Assembly (NCBI GenBank): GCA_965223865.1
Contig: OZ245020.1
Location: forward strand, 800,001-864,000
Length of the DNA stretch: 64,000 nucleotides
Source: Nitrosarchaeum sp.
GTDB lineage: Archaea > Thermoproteota > Nitrososphaeria > Nitrososphaerales > Nitrosopumilaceae
Reading direction: 5' to 3'
In this document: positions 53,127-63,758 of the stretch, piece by piece
How positions within the stretch are numbered: the stretch's first letter is position 1
Layout of the letters: each line of letters starts with the position of its first letter
Program-made: the position numbers and the translations under genes
Notes under the pieces: generated by a model
Told to the model about the DNA's origin: nothing
The model's input: the letters and a program-made list of their open reading frames with translations, nothing else
Databases searched by the model: none

Positions 53127-53255
53127 CTTTTTTTTAAAATTTCTTAATTCCTTTTTACTTCCACGTGGGTCTTTTATTAAATCAACTAACTATATCCTCA
53201 TACATGTAGTACTCCCAGTCAAATTTTGAACCATATGATAAATGATTACCGTTAC

Positions 53256-53294
53256 GTACTGTTACCAGGATTAGAACGCAACCGTTCAGGTCTC
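53256..53294. mobile_element. att-like site: tRNA 3'-end remnant overlapping an 11-6-11 repeat
   Basis: AGGATTAGAAC-GCAACC-GTTCAGGTCTC; same spacer as the 43741 site. Confidence 0.55.
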
Positions 53295-53363
53295 TCAAAA
53301 TAGATCTGCATGGTTATCACACAATCACAAAAAGGTTTTAGGTAAAATCTGTAGTAGATACTC

Positions 53364-53448
53364 GTTGGCGTTGTCAAGTTAGGAATGACGAAGGTCTGAA
53401 AAACCTTTCTGGTACCATGGATCGTGGGTTCAAGTCCCACCGCCAACG
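53364..53448 (+). tRNA. Atypical long-variable-arm tRNA, anticodon GAA, G73
   Basis: GTTGGCG/CGCCAAC, GTCA/TGAC, AAGGT-CTGAAAA-ACCTT, 16-nt V region, GTGGG-TTCAAGT-CCCAC. Confidence 0.85.
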
Positions 53449-53486
53449 GGTTTCTAAATTCTATAGGAAGATATTATTATTAAAAC

Positions 53487-53702
53487 TTAGTTCCTCTTTG
53501 CAACCAATAACATTCTACATCTTCCCAAAGTTCCTCTAGGTTTTGTTCTCAATACATAGTTACAGCATGGACAATACTTGCCATCCCATTTCATAAAAAT
53601 TTGGCAGTTGGTGCATCTCTTCTGTCCCAATTCATACCTGCTAGCCATTCCAATTCTGGTAGCTTTGTATCTTGTACATATTCCCTTACAGACATACCTC
53701 AA
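53487..53702 (-). CDS. Thaumarchaeal Cys-rich small Zn-binding protein, paralog 1
   Basis: CKGIC...RY..GQKRCTNC...WDG.YCPCC..LRTKPR. Confidence 0.85.
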   Translation of the reverse strand: MRYVCKGICTRYKATRIGMASRYELGQKRCTNCQIFMKWDGKYCPCCNYVLRTKPRGTLGRCRMLLVAKRN

Positions 53703-53840
53703 GAATCTTATTTTGATATTATTTATGAATCAAGATGCTTTTTTGTGCAATTAATTTCAGAATTGCAAAATGTGTTGACCTTGATCGAATACGAAATTAA
53801 CCAATTCTTTCAAATTATGTTTTAATGGAATCACAATTCC

Positions 53841-53960
53841 ATGAGTGAGTTGCTAAGATTTAGAGGACTATGCAAACAATGCTATTCATCAGGTGTTGAA
53901 CTGATATTAAATGAGGAGACGTTTGAGGCAGTTTGTGAAAAATGCAAGAAGAGTAATTAA
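53841..53960 (+). CDS. Zn-ribbon microprotein (39 aa)
   Basis: MSELLRFRGLCKQCYSSGVELILNEETFEAVCEKCKKSN; paralog at 63874. Confidence 0.7.
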   Translation: MSELLRFRGLCKQCYSSGVELILNEETFEAVCEKCKKSN

Positions 53961-53969
53961 TTTTAAAAT

Positions 53970-54018
53970 CCATCCATTGCCAAACAAGCGTGCACTTTCT
54001 TGCCGTATAGATGGATGG
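53970..54018 (-). ncRNA. Candidate hairpin small RNA
   Basis: CCATCCAT/ATGGATGG closing stem plus GGCAAG/CUUGUU with G-U pairs on the minus strand. Confidence 0.4.
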
Positions 54019-54064
54019 TATAATTTAGTATATGATCGATATATTCCTAGATCTCACCTATAGT

Positions 54065-54181
54065 TTATTCCAATGGAAAATCAACCTTACAGTTTGGGCA
54101 TTTGCTTCTCTTGCCCTTGTAATGTTCATCATAGTATGCCACAATTGTAAACGAGCAGTGTATACAGACAAGTTCAGACAT
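54065..54181 (-). CDS. Zn-ribbon microprotein (38 aa)
   Basis: MSELVCIHCSFTIVAYYDEHYKGKRSKCPNCKVDFPLE. Confidence 0.7.
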   Translation of the reverse strand: MSELVCIHCSFTIVAYYDEHYKGKRSKCPNCKVDFPLE

Positions 54182-54190
54182 TATGTTTGA

Positions 54191-54352
54191 TTATTCTTTT
54201 TGAATCATTAATCTTTTGCCTGAAACCTTTGCATGTAATGAGTCACCTTTTTTCCATTTTAGTTGTGCAACAACATCAGGTGAGACAGGGATGTACCACT
54301 TGTAATATTCCTCGTCTCCAACTTTCCGGTTTAGTTTTCTCTGTAGTTTCAA
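54191..54352 (-). CDS. AbrB/SpoVT-like DNA-binding protein (53 aa)
   Basis: MKLQRKLNRKVGDEEYYKWYIPVSPDVVAQLKWKKGDSLHAKVSGKRLMIQKE. Confidence 0.75.
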   Translation of the reverse strand: MKLQRKLNRKVGDEEYYKWYIPVSPDVVAQLKWKKGDSLHAKVSGKRLMIQKE

Positions 54353-54486
54353 TACTATAAAATAATGATTTCTTACACTATTTAGAGTTTAGGGCCCTAA
54401 ATATTAATATACCAGATAATTGTACTATTAGGTATGTTGAGCATGATTTTGAAGAAGGCCTTTTATGTAAACGGAGGCAATATTAC

Positions 54487-55254
54487 ATGAGTAACACATT
54501 GACTAGTCCATATACTCAGAGATTCGAAGATTTGCTAAAACCATTACAATCTAAATTATCAGAACTAGAACAAAACCTAGATTCTATTAGTGATGATCAT
54601 CCATACAAGCAGCAAGCTAGACTAGATGTTTTAGAAGAAATTAACAAAATTAAACAAGATATCGAAAACACTAAAAAGAATTTGGAATCTTCTAAAAAGA
54701 TGGAAATAATTCGTTCTGACAAATTACCTTCTAACATTCCAGATCATAATGTTTGGAATGATTGTTGGTATGATGAGGAAAGAAAGTTGTATGTCACATT
54801 TAACGAATATTTTATGGAAGGAGAAGATGCGTGGATACGCCCTCATCAGAAACAATACACAGAAGAGACAGGGATTAAAGCAGCCATTATTTTACCTGAA
54901 CAGATAGAATTTAGATTTGGATATCCTGCTATGTTACAGAAGGATATACAAGGACGAAATGTTTCGTATCTTCTTCCTACACTATCGGATTCAATGTTAA
55001 CGACACAAATGTTGGAATCTAGATTCAAACCAAAAACACAAGATGAAGCTATTCTATACTCTGTTGAATCAGAAGAATGGATTGAAGTTTTGGGAACCAA
55101 ATTATCAGAAAGAGAATATTTGTTGGCCTGTGAAGTATTACCTCATTTGGTAAAGACACCAATTGAGGTTGCTAAATTTATTCATGACAGACCGTATGAT
55201 CCAGTGTTGTACAAACAACAAATGGAGCAAATGAATCAAACAGTACAAAATTGA
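54487..55254 (+). CDS. Orphan protein with N-terminal coiled coil
   Basis: Intact 255-aa ORF, GGAGG RBS, no family recognised. Confidence 0.75.
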   Translation: MSNTLTSPYTQRFEDLLKPLQSKLSELEQNLDSISDDHPYKQQARLDVLEEINKIKQDIENTKKNLESSKKMEIIRSDKLPSNIPDHNVWNDCWYDEERKLYVTFNEYFMEGEDAWIRPHQKQYTEETGIKAAIILPEQIEFRFGYPAMLQKDIQGRNVSYLLPTLSDSMLTTQMLESRFKPKTQDEAILYSVESEEWIEVLGTKLSEREYLLACEVLPHLVKTPIEVAKFIHDRPYDPVLYKQQMEQMNQTVQN

Positions 55255-55315
55255 ACATACCTAAACTAAGACAACAGTAATCTTTTTACATCTTAGAATC
55301 ATATATCCCGTAAGG

Positions 55316-55406
55316 CGGTAGAGGTGGGATTTGAACCCACGAATGTCTACGGGAAACATTACCGGTTATCAGCCAGTCGCTTTTGACCAAGCTGAGCCAC
55401 TCTACC
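55316..55406 (-). tRNA. Atypical long-variable-arm tRNA, anticodon GAT, G73
   Basis: GGTAGAG/CTCTACC, GCT/AGC, ACTGG-CTGATAA-CCGGT, 20-nt V region with 7-bp stem, GTGGG-TTCAAAT-CCCAC; TTAAATA about 25 nt upstream. Confidence 0.87.
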
Positions 55407-55444
55407 AATATTTCATTACAAAAATTCTATTTAATCACGTGGTT

Positions 55445-56134
55445 CTAGGCAAATCCTCTAGAAGGAGAATCTGTTCTGAACCTATTTTCATTCATTCTTG
55501 CTGCATCTACAATCTTTCCTGCAGAAGCAGGATGATTATGTAATTGTTCTAAGAATTTCTGATCTGCCTTTTCTTGAACGGAAGGCATCATTTTATCAAA
55601 TCCTAAAATGTTCTTGTGTTGTACATCCAAGTATTCTTGTTGTGATTGTGGCGTATCCATTATGTGTAATCCTCTGTCAATTGAGGATGCGTTGTTTAGA
55701 GAATCTCCTGGATTCATCATCATGAACAGCTTGAATAATCTCCATATTACTGAGATTCTCCCTTACAATCTGACTTTTTGGTAACCTATCCCCTGAAATG
55801 TATTCCAGTTTAATTTGATCCAAAACATCACTTAGTGGTTGGTGTGACTCCAGATGAACCTGCATCACTGGCATGTCTACTGTCTGACCTTCAACAGTTA
55901 TGGGAACCATCTTCGTGATATTGTAATTTTAATTCTGTCTTCAATTACTCTTAGAATATCAAAGAACTGGCCCATCTTTTGTGCCTGATTTTCTTCTGAT
56001 AAATTGACAAAGTTGGTTGGGATTATGCTATAACTGTACTTGAATTGTAGTTTTGATTCTACTGGTTTGTTGTTTTGATTATTCTGTTGTTTGTTATTCT
56101 TTTTACCTTTAGAAAGGATTGAAATCGATTTCAC
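55445..56134 (-). pseudogene. Fragmented gene(s), N-terminus resembling a VirB4-like conjugation ATPase
   Basis: Three overlapping short ORFs; YSIIPTNFVNLSEENQ..K...F...IKITISR pattern; no P-loop left. Confidence 0.4.
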
Positions 56135-56295: not shown

Positions 56296-56400
56296 CAAAA
56301 ACTTTTATGCTTTCTATGAGCCAAACCATTAATGAAATTAACGACAAAAACTTTTATGCTTTCTATGAGCCAAACCATTAATGAAATTAACGACAAAAAC
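56296..56400 (+). repeat. Exact 49-bp tandem duplication of promoter and start codon
   Basis: 56296-56344 equals 56345-56393, bounded by CAAAAAC. Confidence 0.92.
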
Positions 56401-57253
56401 AATGACATTCTTTTCAATACTGACAGTAACCATTGCAAGCCTAATGCTAATGACAGTTCCTACATCTGCTTATGCAGAAACCATGGTAAGTGTTCCAGCT
56501 GGTACTTCTGTCCCTGGATGTGAGGAGACAAACGAATGCTACATTCCATATGAGGTAACGGTAGGTGTTGGCGAGACAGTAATTTGGTCAAATGACGACA
56601 CTGCGGCCCACACCGTAACCAGCGGAACTGCTGCTGATGGTCCTGATGGAATCTTTGATTCTAGTCTGTTCATGGCAGGAACCACATTCTCCCACACGTT
56701 TGAGGAAGAAGGTACCTTTGACTACTTTTGCATGGTACATCCGTGGATGATTGGCAGTGTAACGGTTGGAGCAGGCATGGGTAATGGCGGTAACGGTGAT
56801 GATGGTGATACCAATGGTTCTGGTGGTGACACTGAAGAACTAATGGTAGAGATTGTAACGGGTGAGGCAGCTCAAGACCAAATGCTGTCAATTGATGTAA
56901 CCTTTACCACACTTGACGGAATGAGCGTGGAGCATGTCAACTATGACATCATGGCAACCCAAGGAACAGAAACCGTTCTTGATGACAAGGGAGTACATGA
57001 TCATGACGGAGTCATGAATCATATGACTGCACCACTGCCTGCAGGAGCATCTGATGAAATGCCAGTAGACATTACTGTGACATTTAACGGATTTGGTGTT
57101 GAAGAGCCATTTACTGGTCCAACAGGACAAGTGGCAACAAAACAAGTAGTTCCAGAATTTGGAACAATAGCTGTTATGATTTTGGCAGTTGCAATAATAT
57201 CAATAATTGCGATATCTGCAAAGTCAAGACTCAGTATAATGCCAAGACTGTAA
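56381..57253 (+). CDS. Blue copper (cupredoxin) protein with PEFG-CTERM sorting signal
   Basis: HTVTSG, YFCMVHPWM, VPEFG + TM + basic tail. Confidence 0.93.
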   Translation: MKLTTKTMTFFSILTVTIASLMLMTVPTSAYAETMVSVPAGTSVPGCEETNECYIPYEVTVGVGETVIWSNDDTAAHTVTSGTAADGPDGIFDSSLFMAGTTFSHTFEEEGTFDYFCMVHPWMIGSVTVGAGMGNGGNGDDGDTNGSGGDTEELMVEIVTGEAAQDQMLSIDVTFTTLDGMSVEHVNYDIMATQGTETVLDDKGVHDHDGVMNHMTAPLPAGASDEMPVDITVTFNGFGVEEPFTGPTGQVATKQVVPEFGTIAVMILAVAIISIIAISAKSRLSIMPRL

Positions 57254-60748: not shown

Positions 60749-61510
60749 TTAAGATTTTATTTTTCGTGGACCTGTCTTACCATCTACAGAAATTATTGCG
60801 CCAAACTTGTCAAATTGGACATGCTTGATGCGAAGCGATAACAGTTCACTTGGTCTGGTGCCAGCTTCATAGTGTACCGCAATCGGTGCCTTTACTCTGT
60901 AATTCTTTTCGACAGCCTTTATCAACTGTCTGTATTCCAAGTCCGTCAAGAGTTCTTCTCTTACTAGATAGTCTTTTACTTGTCGTGCCTTGACTCCTTT
61001 TGTTTCGGGAGGATCTCCTACATCTTTGAAATCCCTTGAGCCAAGCTTAAACCATCTAAAAAATAATTTTAGTATCTTTTTGTGATCATAAGTGTAATTG
61101 GTCTCTTGACCTTTCTCATTTCCGTACATACTCATAATCTTAAAGACGACCTCATCAATGTCAGATTTTGTAGCATCTGTCCAGTCTTTTTTCAATATTC
61201 TTGAAAGGTTCAGGACTGTCTGCAAATGCTTTAGTCTAGTTGATTTTGCAAGAGATTCTTGTACCATGTGTTGATTGTATTTTTTTATCAGTCTGGCGTT
61301 GTACTCTGAAAGATCTCTGTCAATTACCTCATAAACTCTCTCTAGTTTTGTATTATATGGATGGATATCAAATCCTTCGCTTTTCTTTGATGTCTTTGAT
61401 ATGCGGAGTTGCTTTACTATGCTAGAGGGAATTCCAAGATATACTGTTTCTCCATTTCCGCCAACCCATGGCTTTTTGACTGAAAGAAATGGACTTTGTG
61501 TTTTTCTCAT
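60749..61510 (-). pseudogene. Truncated tyrosine integrase with fused AbrB-like N-terminus
   Basis: YEAGTRPSELL.LRIKHV, VDGKTG.R present; HxxR and catalytic Tyr region missing. Confidence 0.85.
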
Positions 61511-62276: not shown

Positions 62277-62483
62277 TCAGATTCTGATCTTTGTCTTTTT
62301 CTTTCTGTACTGGTTGCCCTTGGGTTTACTTCTTAGCATGTATCCGCAACACGGACACCACAGTCCTTCCCACTTTATGTAAATTGAACACGTGGTACAT
62401 CTCTTGGCACCCCTTGTATACCATGACTCATACCTTTTTCCTTTAGTCATTTTGTACCTGTGGCATATTTCCTGGCATACCAT
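62277..62483 (-). CDS. Thaumarchaeal Cys-rich small Zn-binding protein, paralog 2
   Basis: CQEIC...GAKRCTTC..IKWEGLWCPCCGY.LRSKP. Confidence 0.85.
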   Translation of the reverse strand: MVCQEICHRYKMTKGKRYESWYTRGAKRCTTCSIYIKWEGLWCPCCGYMLRSKPKGNQYRKKKTKIRI

Positions 62484-63557: not shown

Positions 63558-63758
63558 CTATATTCTGTTGATTTTAGCCTCGTTTCTGTACTTGATTGAC
63601 TTGGTTTTGAGCTGATATTTGCAGCATGGACATCTATTCTCATCAATCTTCATAAACACTGCGCAATGCGAACAGTATTTCTGTCCTGATTCATATCTTG
63701 AGATGCCAGTATCGGGTTTTTTGACTCTATACTGATGGCAGATGTTGGTGCAGGACAA
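63558..63758 (-). CDS. Thaumarchaeal Cys-rich small Zn-binding protein, paralog 3
   Basis: CTNIC...RYESGQKYCSHC...CPCC..LKTK. Confidence 0.85.
   Translation of the reverse strand: MSCTNICHQYRVKKPDTGISRYESGQKYCSHCAVFMKIDENRCPCCKYQLKTKSIKYRNEAKINRI

Follow-up and report, generated by a model that had tools for sequence, protein, structure and literature searches.

We analysed a 64,000-nucleotide (nt) stretch of the Nitrosarchaeum sp. genome (contig OZ245020.1, positions 800,001 to 864,000, forward strand; hereafter the window), which carries at 53364..53448 a transfer RNA (tRNA) gene with the phenylalanine anticodon GAA, a long variable arm and a G at the discriminator position (G73). The gene is accessory, occurs sporadically and sits in varied neighbourhoods, and its fold, its family and its mobility are well supported. 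The explanation that we tentatively favour is that it encodes a mobile-element-borne missense tRNA of the seryl type, which would be charged independently of its anticodon and would be an archaeal counterpart of the bacterial allo-tRNAs and the nematode nev-tRNAs.

A class II tRNA gene with a GAA anticodon

Both ARAGORN and Rfam (RF00005) call a tRNA at 53363/4-53448/9 on the plus strand, and the Rfam score of 54.1 bits (E 7.6e-09, model positions 1-71) is well above the gathering score of 29, with a cloverleaf and a conserved T loop. The gene and its parts are as follows.

53364..53448, plus strand: class II tRNA gene with GAA, A37 and G73, 85 nt, without an encoded CCA; found by ARAGORN, Rfam and the family covariance model R1 (85.4 bits)
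53398..53400, plus strand: anticodon GAA in the arm AAGGU-CUGAAAA-ACCUU, with A37; the loop CUGAAAA recurs in 23 of 27 aligned family rows
53408..53423, plus strand: variable region UCUGGUACCAUGGAUC, 16 nt, made of a stem of 4 base pairs (bp), a 6-nt loop and 2 unpaired nt
53360..53363, plus strand: leader ACUC, which can pair with G73 and the trailing GGU (53448-53451) and so lengthen the acceptor helix by 4 bp (-1:73 to -4:76)
53336..53347, plus strand: TATA-like A/T-rich box TTTTAGGTAAAA, a putative promoter about 17-28 nt upstream of the tRNA, read by eye

The acceptor stem, GUUGGCG/CGCCAAC, pairs at 7 of 7 positions and is followed by U8 and U9 as read from the sequence. The D arm (GUCA-AGUUAGGAA-UGAC) has a 4-bp stem and a 9-nt loop, the T arm (GUGGG-UUCAAGU-CCCAC) has a canonical T loop, and the discriminator G73 lies at 53448. 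The best pairing within the variable region is the 4-bp stem UCUG/UGGA, followed by UC. The original prediction had described the anticodon, A37, the 16-nt variable region with this stem, and G73, and all of them are present. By eye, a similar A/T-rich box at the same spacing precedes family copies of the gene and ordinary tRNA genes.

Because the lone-sequence minimum-energy fold of the window copy favours an alternative hairpin over the anticodon arm and the variable arm, the cloverleaf with its fifth arm rests on the family alignment. RNAalifold, applied to a MAFFT alignment of 18 members, returned a cloverleaf plus a fifth hairpin, with compensatory changes in 18 of the 26 pairs. When 27 family rows were aligned to the structure model, 95.3% of the cells held standard pairs, as compared with 73.0% after shuffling (none of 500 shuffles reached the observed value) and 40-46% when the partners were slid. 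All five helices covary across these rows: both partners differ between rows in 21 of the 26 pairs, and this holds for all 4 pairs of the variable-arm helix, where 89.5% of the cells are paired. The variable region exceeds 10 nt and forms its own helix, as in a class II tRNA; its length is 16 nt in the window copy and ranges from 12 to 22 nt across the family.

An intron could in principle produce the same extra length. The gene would then be a class I tRNA-Phe with a short bulge-helix-bulge intron in its variable loop, removed by the archaeal splicing endonuclease. The tRNA-Val(CAC) of the host has a variable-loop intron, many other host tRNAs contain introns, and removal of 11 nt from the window gene leaves a 5-nt loop. 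We scanned for such splicing, which the original prediction had raised, with a strict scanner requiring a 4-bp helix between two 3-nt bulges at the edges of the insert and a remaining variable loop of 4-6 nt. The scanner recovered the introns of tRNA-Ile (12 nt) and of the tRNA-Val(CAC) variable loop (16 nt), and found no candidate in either of the two accessory tRNAs of the window, although its sensitivity is limited, as its top-ranked candidates did not include the true site in four other intron-bearing tRNAs. The window copy has no 4-bp central helix accompanied by an outer helix. Strict matches occurred in 3 of 18 family rows, a rate similar to that in genuine serine and leucine arms (1 of 5), and the shortest family arm, CC-UUCG-GG in L062, is too small to hold a splice motif. 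The body is of class II character in the alignments and in the U8-C9 of the family, G73 and A37 are not Phe-like, and a canonical tRNA-Phe is present. We consider the intron extremely unlikely; on the sequence evidence, the long arm is a true class II variable arm.

The flanks had also been predicted to extend the acceptor helix, with an 8/5 fold of the tRNA-Sec type as a possible outcome. The extension itself was confirmed as four stacked pairs of ACUC with GGGU. A -1:73 pair is ordinary in the host, where 30 of 42 tRNAs have it, and an extension of at least 3 bp is seen in only 3 of 42. Many family copies have the leader AACCU or ACUC, both of which pair with the same trailer GGGUU(U) to give 4-8 extra pairs; other copies have 0-1, and the extension is therefore not universal in the family. 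The 4-bp D stem and the 5-bp T stem covary, and while tRNA-Sec (8/5 in bacteria, 9/4 in archaea) has the anticodon UCA, 13 bp in its acceptor and T stems together and an elongated D stem, the window gene has GAA, stems of 7 and 5 bp and a D stem of 4 bp. We read the extendable stem as a property of the precursor, and the 8/5 fold was not borne out. The longest leader-trailer extension in the host, 7 bp, belongs to an intron-bearing tRNA at C1:2114-2219 that is probably Gln CUG (the ARAGORN label Leu is wrong).

An accessory family beside the host tRNA set

The host genome (2.01 Mb, 34% G+C) has a tRNA set of archaeal style with many introns. It contains a canonical tRNA-Phe at C1:1228852-1228925, the presence of which the original prediction had proposed to confirm, with the loop CUGAAGA (G37), a 5-nt variable loop and A73. 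The window gene has the same anticodon and none of these other features. Its class II body, A37, G73 and accessory family, together with the canonical gene elsewhere, uphold the claim that this is no normal tRNA-Phe. At C1:695780-695866 the host has a canonical tRNA-Ile(GAU) with an intron, and it carries all four tRNA-Ser and all five tRNA-Leu, with tRNA-Leu(UAA) being recovered through a T-arm search. The window gene has the G73 and the long arm of tRNA-Ser without a serine anticodon (NGA or GCU), and differs at position 73 from all five host tRNA-Leu, which have A73. Global alignments gave class II tRNAs (Leu, Ser) as best partners, above tRNA-Phe; the T arm of the window gene is identical to that of host tRNA-Leu, and tRNA-Ser(GCU) is the top canonical tRNA under the family covariance model (71 bits). 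The host has a single gene of the seryl-tRNA synthetase (SerRS) type and a single gene for the alpha subunit of phenylalanyl-tRNA synthetase (PheRS), and no extra SerRS or PheRS was found in its genome. We also considered a hidden tRNA-Leu(UAA) or tRNA-Ser(GGA) and rejected both, since each exists elsewhere with an intron and the perfect 5-bp stem fixes the anticodon register.

To count relatives, 401 genomes of the taxonomic family were searched with a pattern made of the loop CUGAARA, a gap beyond that of any class I tRNA, and the T arm. The pattern matched in 24 of the 401 genomes, with 35 matches against 4 for a reversed-pattern control. By genus, and leaving out the own genome (the 24th), the matches fell in 2 of 6 genomes of g1, 12 of 63 of g10, 5 of 99 of g13 and 4 of 41 of g20. 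The figure of 24 is a lower bound, since a looser T-arm pattern gave further copies in G211; the unpublished genome G205 supplied the row L064/L415 and 4 of the 35 matches, and the unpublished G077 one spurious match. Among the 30 loci returned, 25 fold as GAA tRNAs of 84-95 nt and 5 do not, and several genomes hold 2-4 copies each. The close blastn relatives are in G030 (two copies) and G038, and no family tRNA was found in the congeners G003 and G054 with blastn, the GAA pattern or the covariance model. A scan of public genomes placed members in Nitrosarchaeum, Nitrosopumilus and 'Thaumarchaeota' assemblies (L249, L270, L290 and L273).

The family covariance model was run on 151 genomes that were at least 90% complete, and the best 30 loci were read with ARAGORN. 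They comprised 10 GAA, 1 GAU and 1 UUC tRNA, 1 CAA tRNA with G73, and 17 ordinary tRNA-Ser; at least one copy of an odd class II tRNA was present in 13 of the 151 genomes among these best 30 loci. Beyond Nitrosopumilaceae, Ser-bodied GAA tRNAs with G37, G73 and the loop CUGAAGA occur in L245 (Thermoplasmata), L301 (Methanobacteriota, two copies) and L325, and each of these genomes also holds a class I tRNA-Phe. In IMG/VR, two pattern scans (at least 116 and 63 loci) showed no family member among the matches listed. The long GAA-pattern matches there proved to be phage tRNA-Ser(UGA) in another register, and a viral origin is unsupported.

Across the 27 rows the anticodon loops are CUGAAAA (23), CUGAAGA (2), CUGUCAA (1) and CUGAUAA (1). 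U8-C9, as in the host serine and leucine tRNAs, is found in 26 of the rows, while the window copy itself has U8-U9. The last aligned base is G in 25 rows and A in 2, and the rows L047 and L048 are damaged or out of register. Class II tRNAs with G73 and other anticodons were seen at L367, L408, L412, L424, L425 and L438, reading GUC (Asp), GAU (Ile), CAA (Leu) and UUC (Glu); GAU is found at three of these relative loci, one of them with an unusual C33. A separate conserved segment (for example G010:C1:163370-163409, and in about 30 other g10 genomes) has the loop CUUAUGA, which reads UAU, an 18-nt insert with AUAUCCCUAU and a T arm of the tRNA-Leu type. The same segment is present in g5 and g8, with a UAA-loop relative in g26, and ARAGORN gives no fold for it; the pattern that recovered it mostly caught intron-bearing canonical tRNA-Ile and tRNA-Leu, and its tallies are not family counts.

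L408 (GAU) has the acceptor stem and D arm of one of the G030 GAA copies, and within the single genome G211, L367 (GUC) and L384 (GAA) have the same acceptor stem and D arm. G73 is constant while the anticodon varies on these near-identical bodies, which points to charging that ignores the anticodon. SerRS identity lies in a long variable arm together with G73 (PMC7609411), and G73 is conserved in tRNA-Ser as A73 is in tRNA-Leu (PMC3333845); by these identity rules, the long arm and G73 suggest that the anticodon-ignoring enzyme is SerRS.

A different reading of the same family is that the gene is a spare tRNA-Phe. PheRS would then charge it through GAA despite G73 and the long arm, G73 would only block leucyl-tRNA synthetase on a body derived from tRNA-Leu, and the tRNA would aid the decoding of UUY codons in island or element genes or resist a host tRNA nuclease. 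GAA is dominant, in 25 of the 27 rows and in 12 of 13 distinct matches to an anticodon-free pattern requiring the trailer GGGTT (the other being GUC). A single base change separates the anticodon of tRNA-Leu(UAA) from GAA, the T arm matches that of host tRNA-Leu exactly, as noted above, and UUY codons are abundant in a genome of 34% G+C. Extra tRNAs are also common on mobile elements. On the other hand, the window gene is without the A73, the G37, the G at the D-loop position read as 20 and the short variable loop of the host tRNA-Phe, and duplicating tRNA-Phe would have been a simpler origin. Near-identical bodies with GAU or GUC and an unchanged G73 are hard to fit with three anticodon-reading enzymes. 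We regard a spare tRNA-Phe as rather unlikely.

Module, neighbouring genes and mobility

The tRNA gene lies in a module that is common to the window and the congener G030. The features of the module and of the surrounding island are listed below.

53247..55730, strand not assigned: module common with G030; about 85% blastn identity over 53247-53790 and 54423-54945
53487..53702, minus strand: small open reading frame (ORF) with four cysteines, directly downstream of the GAA tRNA; 89% to G030 in tblastx
54487..55254, plus strand: module ORF of 255 amino acids, without a known family match
55316..55406, minus strand: accessory class II tRNA with anticodon GAU, 20-nt variable region and G73; ARAGORN, Rfam 52.5 bits, R1 66 bits
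60345..60563, minus strand: HicB-like antitoxin ORF; Pfam E 0.0031, phrog_497 E 5.1e-06
60749..61510, minus strand: tyrosine recombinase (integrase) ORF, C-terminally truncated; Pfam PF00589 E 1.1e-05, covering the first 62 of 172 profile positions

In G030 the genes that flank the module in the window (dienelactone hydrolase and plastocyanin-like) sit more than 1 Mb from the matching segment. Contigs from four DNA runs gave fragmentary cover, with loose ends at 53247; in three of the runs the surroundings of the GAU tRNA, for instance, were not covered. The four-cysteine, zinc-ribbon-like ORF has paralogues at 62277-62483 and 63558-63758, both on the minus strand, and Pfam, PHROGs and NCBIfam gave no match for these ORFs. 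The integrase ORF also matches phrog_1 integrase (E 1.4e-10) and positions 2-152 of 263 of an archaeal XerA model. Beyond the integrase and HicB, searches of the island ORFs against Pfam, PHROGs and NCBIfam returned nothing informative; no tRNA remnant was found beside the truncated integrase at E up to 1, and no second copy of the 3' end of the GAA tRNA occurs elsewhere in the window.

The second tRNA of the module, GAU, lies 1.9 kb from the GAA tRNA and converges with it, and its D and T arms resemble those of host tRNA-Leu. The 3' halves of the two tRNAs form a 27-nt inverted repeat with 85% complementarity. A pattern search found an orthologue of the GAU tRNA, L412 in G360, whose acceptor stem is the same and whose upstream region is conserved. 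In blastn, the GAU tRNA gave only T-arm matches or partial matches to tRNA-Leu or tRNA-Ile, and no GAU tRNA was found in the syntenic G030 module. The intron loop motif UUUCCCG of the host tRNA-Val(CAC) gene (C1:1080626-1080716, outside the window) resembles the variable-arm loop of the GAU tRNA.

Two further repeats lie in the window. A dispersed repeat of about 75-80 nt at 53159-53236, left of the module boundary at 53247, has 9 matches in the host genome, of which one lies about 200 nt from tRNA-Val(CAC), and at least 12 in G030. A perfect 49-nt tandem duplication at 56296-56393 (two copies, 100%) extends into the beginning of the plastocyanin-like ORF (56381-57253).

Genes of mobile DNA also adjoin the tRNA elsewhere in the family. 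In G290 and G038 the 3' side of the tRNA faces genes for an archaeal phage-type integrase and a PriX primase; conservation spans these genes, the tRNA itself and about 60 nt upstream of the tRNA. G290 has a 1.6-kb inverted duplicate interrupted by a transposase, insertion-sequence (transposase) genes adjoin the tRNA in G321, and toxin-antitoxin genes adjoin it at L412 and L064. At L051, a partial direct repeat (1297-1340) of the last approximately 45 nt of the GAA tRNA and the following gagtctaattaaa sits upstream of the full gene (1468-1560), at a distance of about 215 nt, and looks like an attachment-site scar.

Such a setting raises the question of whether the tRNA shape is used in translation at all. 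It could be an attachment site that integrating elements keep intact, or an RNA with a decoy or regulatory function, for example against tRNA-targeting toxins. This explanation fits the integrase that adjoins the 3' end in G290 and in G038, the L051 repeat and the toxin-antitoxin neighbours. It also fits two published observations, namely that tRNA genes are the targets of 39 of 68 integrated elements of Thaumarchaeota (PMC6563490) and that allo-tRNAs are likewise linked to toxin-antitoxin loci (PMC5389517). A short stretch would be enough for an attachment site, however, while covariation extends to all five helices across the whole molecule and the T loop is canonical. Within about 10 kb of 8 loci no attachment-site repeat was found, partial ones included, except for the G290 inverted duplication, and no protein partner common to the 30 loci was found in their 1.5-kb flanks. 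A role outside translation is, in our view, on the unlikely side.

The island setting with its truncated integrase could also suggest a decaying duplicate without function. Damaged relatives exist (4 of the 7 acceptor pairs form in L046 and L048, and the T loop is short in L043 and L057), and the variable stem of the window copy is weak. In the window copy, however, all 7 acceptor pairs form, the D, anticodon and T arms are intact, and the canonical T loop and the TATA-like box are retained; the family shows compensatory change, not decay. A pseudogene is very improbable.

Proposed role and comparison with known systems

We propose that the host tRNA-Phe is not replaced, and that the accessory gene, which looks functional with its class II body, 7/5 geometry, serine-type G73 and GAA, moves with mobile or island DNA. 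The gene would be transcribed from its own TATA-like promoter, and the transcript processed to a normal 7-bp acceptor end, to which CCA would then be added. The sole host SerRS would charge the tRNA through its long arm and G73 and ignore the anticodon. The charged tRNA would read UUY codons in competition with Phe-tRNA-Phe, leading to a low level of Phe-to-Ser substitution or to decoding that is specific to the element.

Several points weigh against this seryl missense tRNA. PheRS recognises its tRNA mainly by the GAA anticodon, so that it may charge this tRNA with phenylalanine. The variable arm of the host tRNA-Ser is uniform, with a 5-bp stem from position 44, a GNAA loop and one unpaired C; the window copy does not match this geometry, the family arms are heterogeneous, and SerRS may be sensitive to the orientation of the variable arm. 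In the window copy the arm is weak, two of its four pairs being G.U, and the alternative hairpin of the lone-sequence fold counts on the same side. The 27-row alignment was fitted to the structure model, and its pair counts lean towards that structure; the MAFFT-based result agrees. In the T arm, and to some extent in the D arm, the window and G030 copies are as Leu-like as Ser-like, and three copies from genus g20 (L057, L059 and L416) have A73. Proteome-wide substitution of serine for phenylalanine should be harmful, with no evident benefit, and conservation of the loop could come partly from an integrase crossover site rather than from decoding.

A wider possibility, which we consider doubtful, is that archaeal mobile elements, in ammonia oxidisers and possibly in other phyla, carry a toolkit of seryl-type missense tRNAs that would insert serine at codons for Phe, Ile, Asp, Glu or Leu. 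The synthetases for serine and leucine do not read the anticodon, and in nature sense codons are therefore most simply reassigned, or deliberately mistranslated, by a class II tRNA that bears a foreign anticodon. If the wider possibility is true, it would mean a natural and transferable sense-codon ambiguity in archaea, in which an element manipulates or poisons host translation or decodes its own genes differently. The family is tied to integrated elements of environmentally dominant nitrifiers, some of which are cultivable, and its scaffold may serve genetic-code engineering. Annotation pipelines will name such genes tRNA-Phe or tRNA-Ile from the anticodon.

Among the closest known systems are the bacterial allo-tRNAs (Mukai et al. 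2017, PMC5389517), expression of which in E. coli gives missense or nonsense suppression. As described in that paper, they combine a long arm and G73 or U73, that is, seryl identity, with a non-serine anticodon, and they are accessory, sporadic and linked to toxin-antitoxin genes. The archaeal tRNAs likewise have a long arm, G73 and a non-serine anticodon. The anticodons of allo-tRNAs are highly diverse and include GUC and, once, that of Phe, but GAA is rare among them and dominant in the archaeal family. Furthermore, allo-tRNAs are bacterial, with an 8/4 or 9/3 arrangement of acceptor and T stems and a D arm like that of tRNA-Sec, whereas the archaeal family has a covarying 7/5 arrangement, in the window copy and the consensus, and a 4-bp D stem; by eye, the relative L050 is perhaps 7/4 or 8/4.

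The nev-tRNAs of nematodes, like other non-canonical V-arm tRNAs of eukaryotes (Hamashima et al. 2012, PMC3333845), are class II tRNAs of canonical fold with foreign anticodons (Gly CCC, Ile UAU), which exist beside a full normal set and are charged independently of the anticodon. The archaeal family resembles them in its class II canonical fold and in anticodons that are neither Leu nor Ser. In that study, however, all 115 nev-tRNAs have A73, and they are leucylated and nuclear, while the archaeal family has G73 (25 of 27 rows) and is linked to mobile DNA. G73 in place of A73 points to serine rather than leucine.

Compared with the host tRNA-Ser and tRNA-Leu, the family has the same U8-C9 and long arm, the G73 of tRNA-Ser and a T arm that is identical or nearly identical to that of tRNA-Leu, but its anticodon is neither, its D arm has a 4-bp stem and a 9-nt loop, and its variable arm follows neither the Ser nor the Leu pattern. 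The tRNA-Ser(CAG) of CUG-clade yeasts is a serine tRNA with the anticodon of a hydrophobic amino acid, the codon being ambiguous or reassigned; it is chromosomal and lineage-fixed, and the code change has been shown. The archaeal gene differs in that it is accessory, its decoding role is predicted only, and the normal tRNA-Phe is kept. No archaeal case of such tRNAs was found in the literature searched, with subscription papers and supplements outside its scope. Thus, while the general kind is already known from bacteria and nematodes, what is new here is an archaeal family that joins a canonical 7/5 fold, G73 and a dominant Phe anticodon with mobile DNA.

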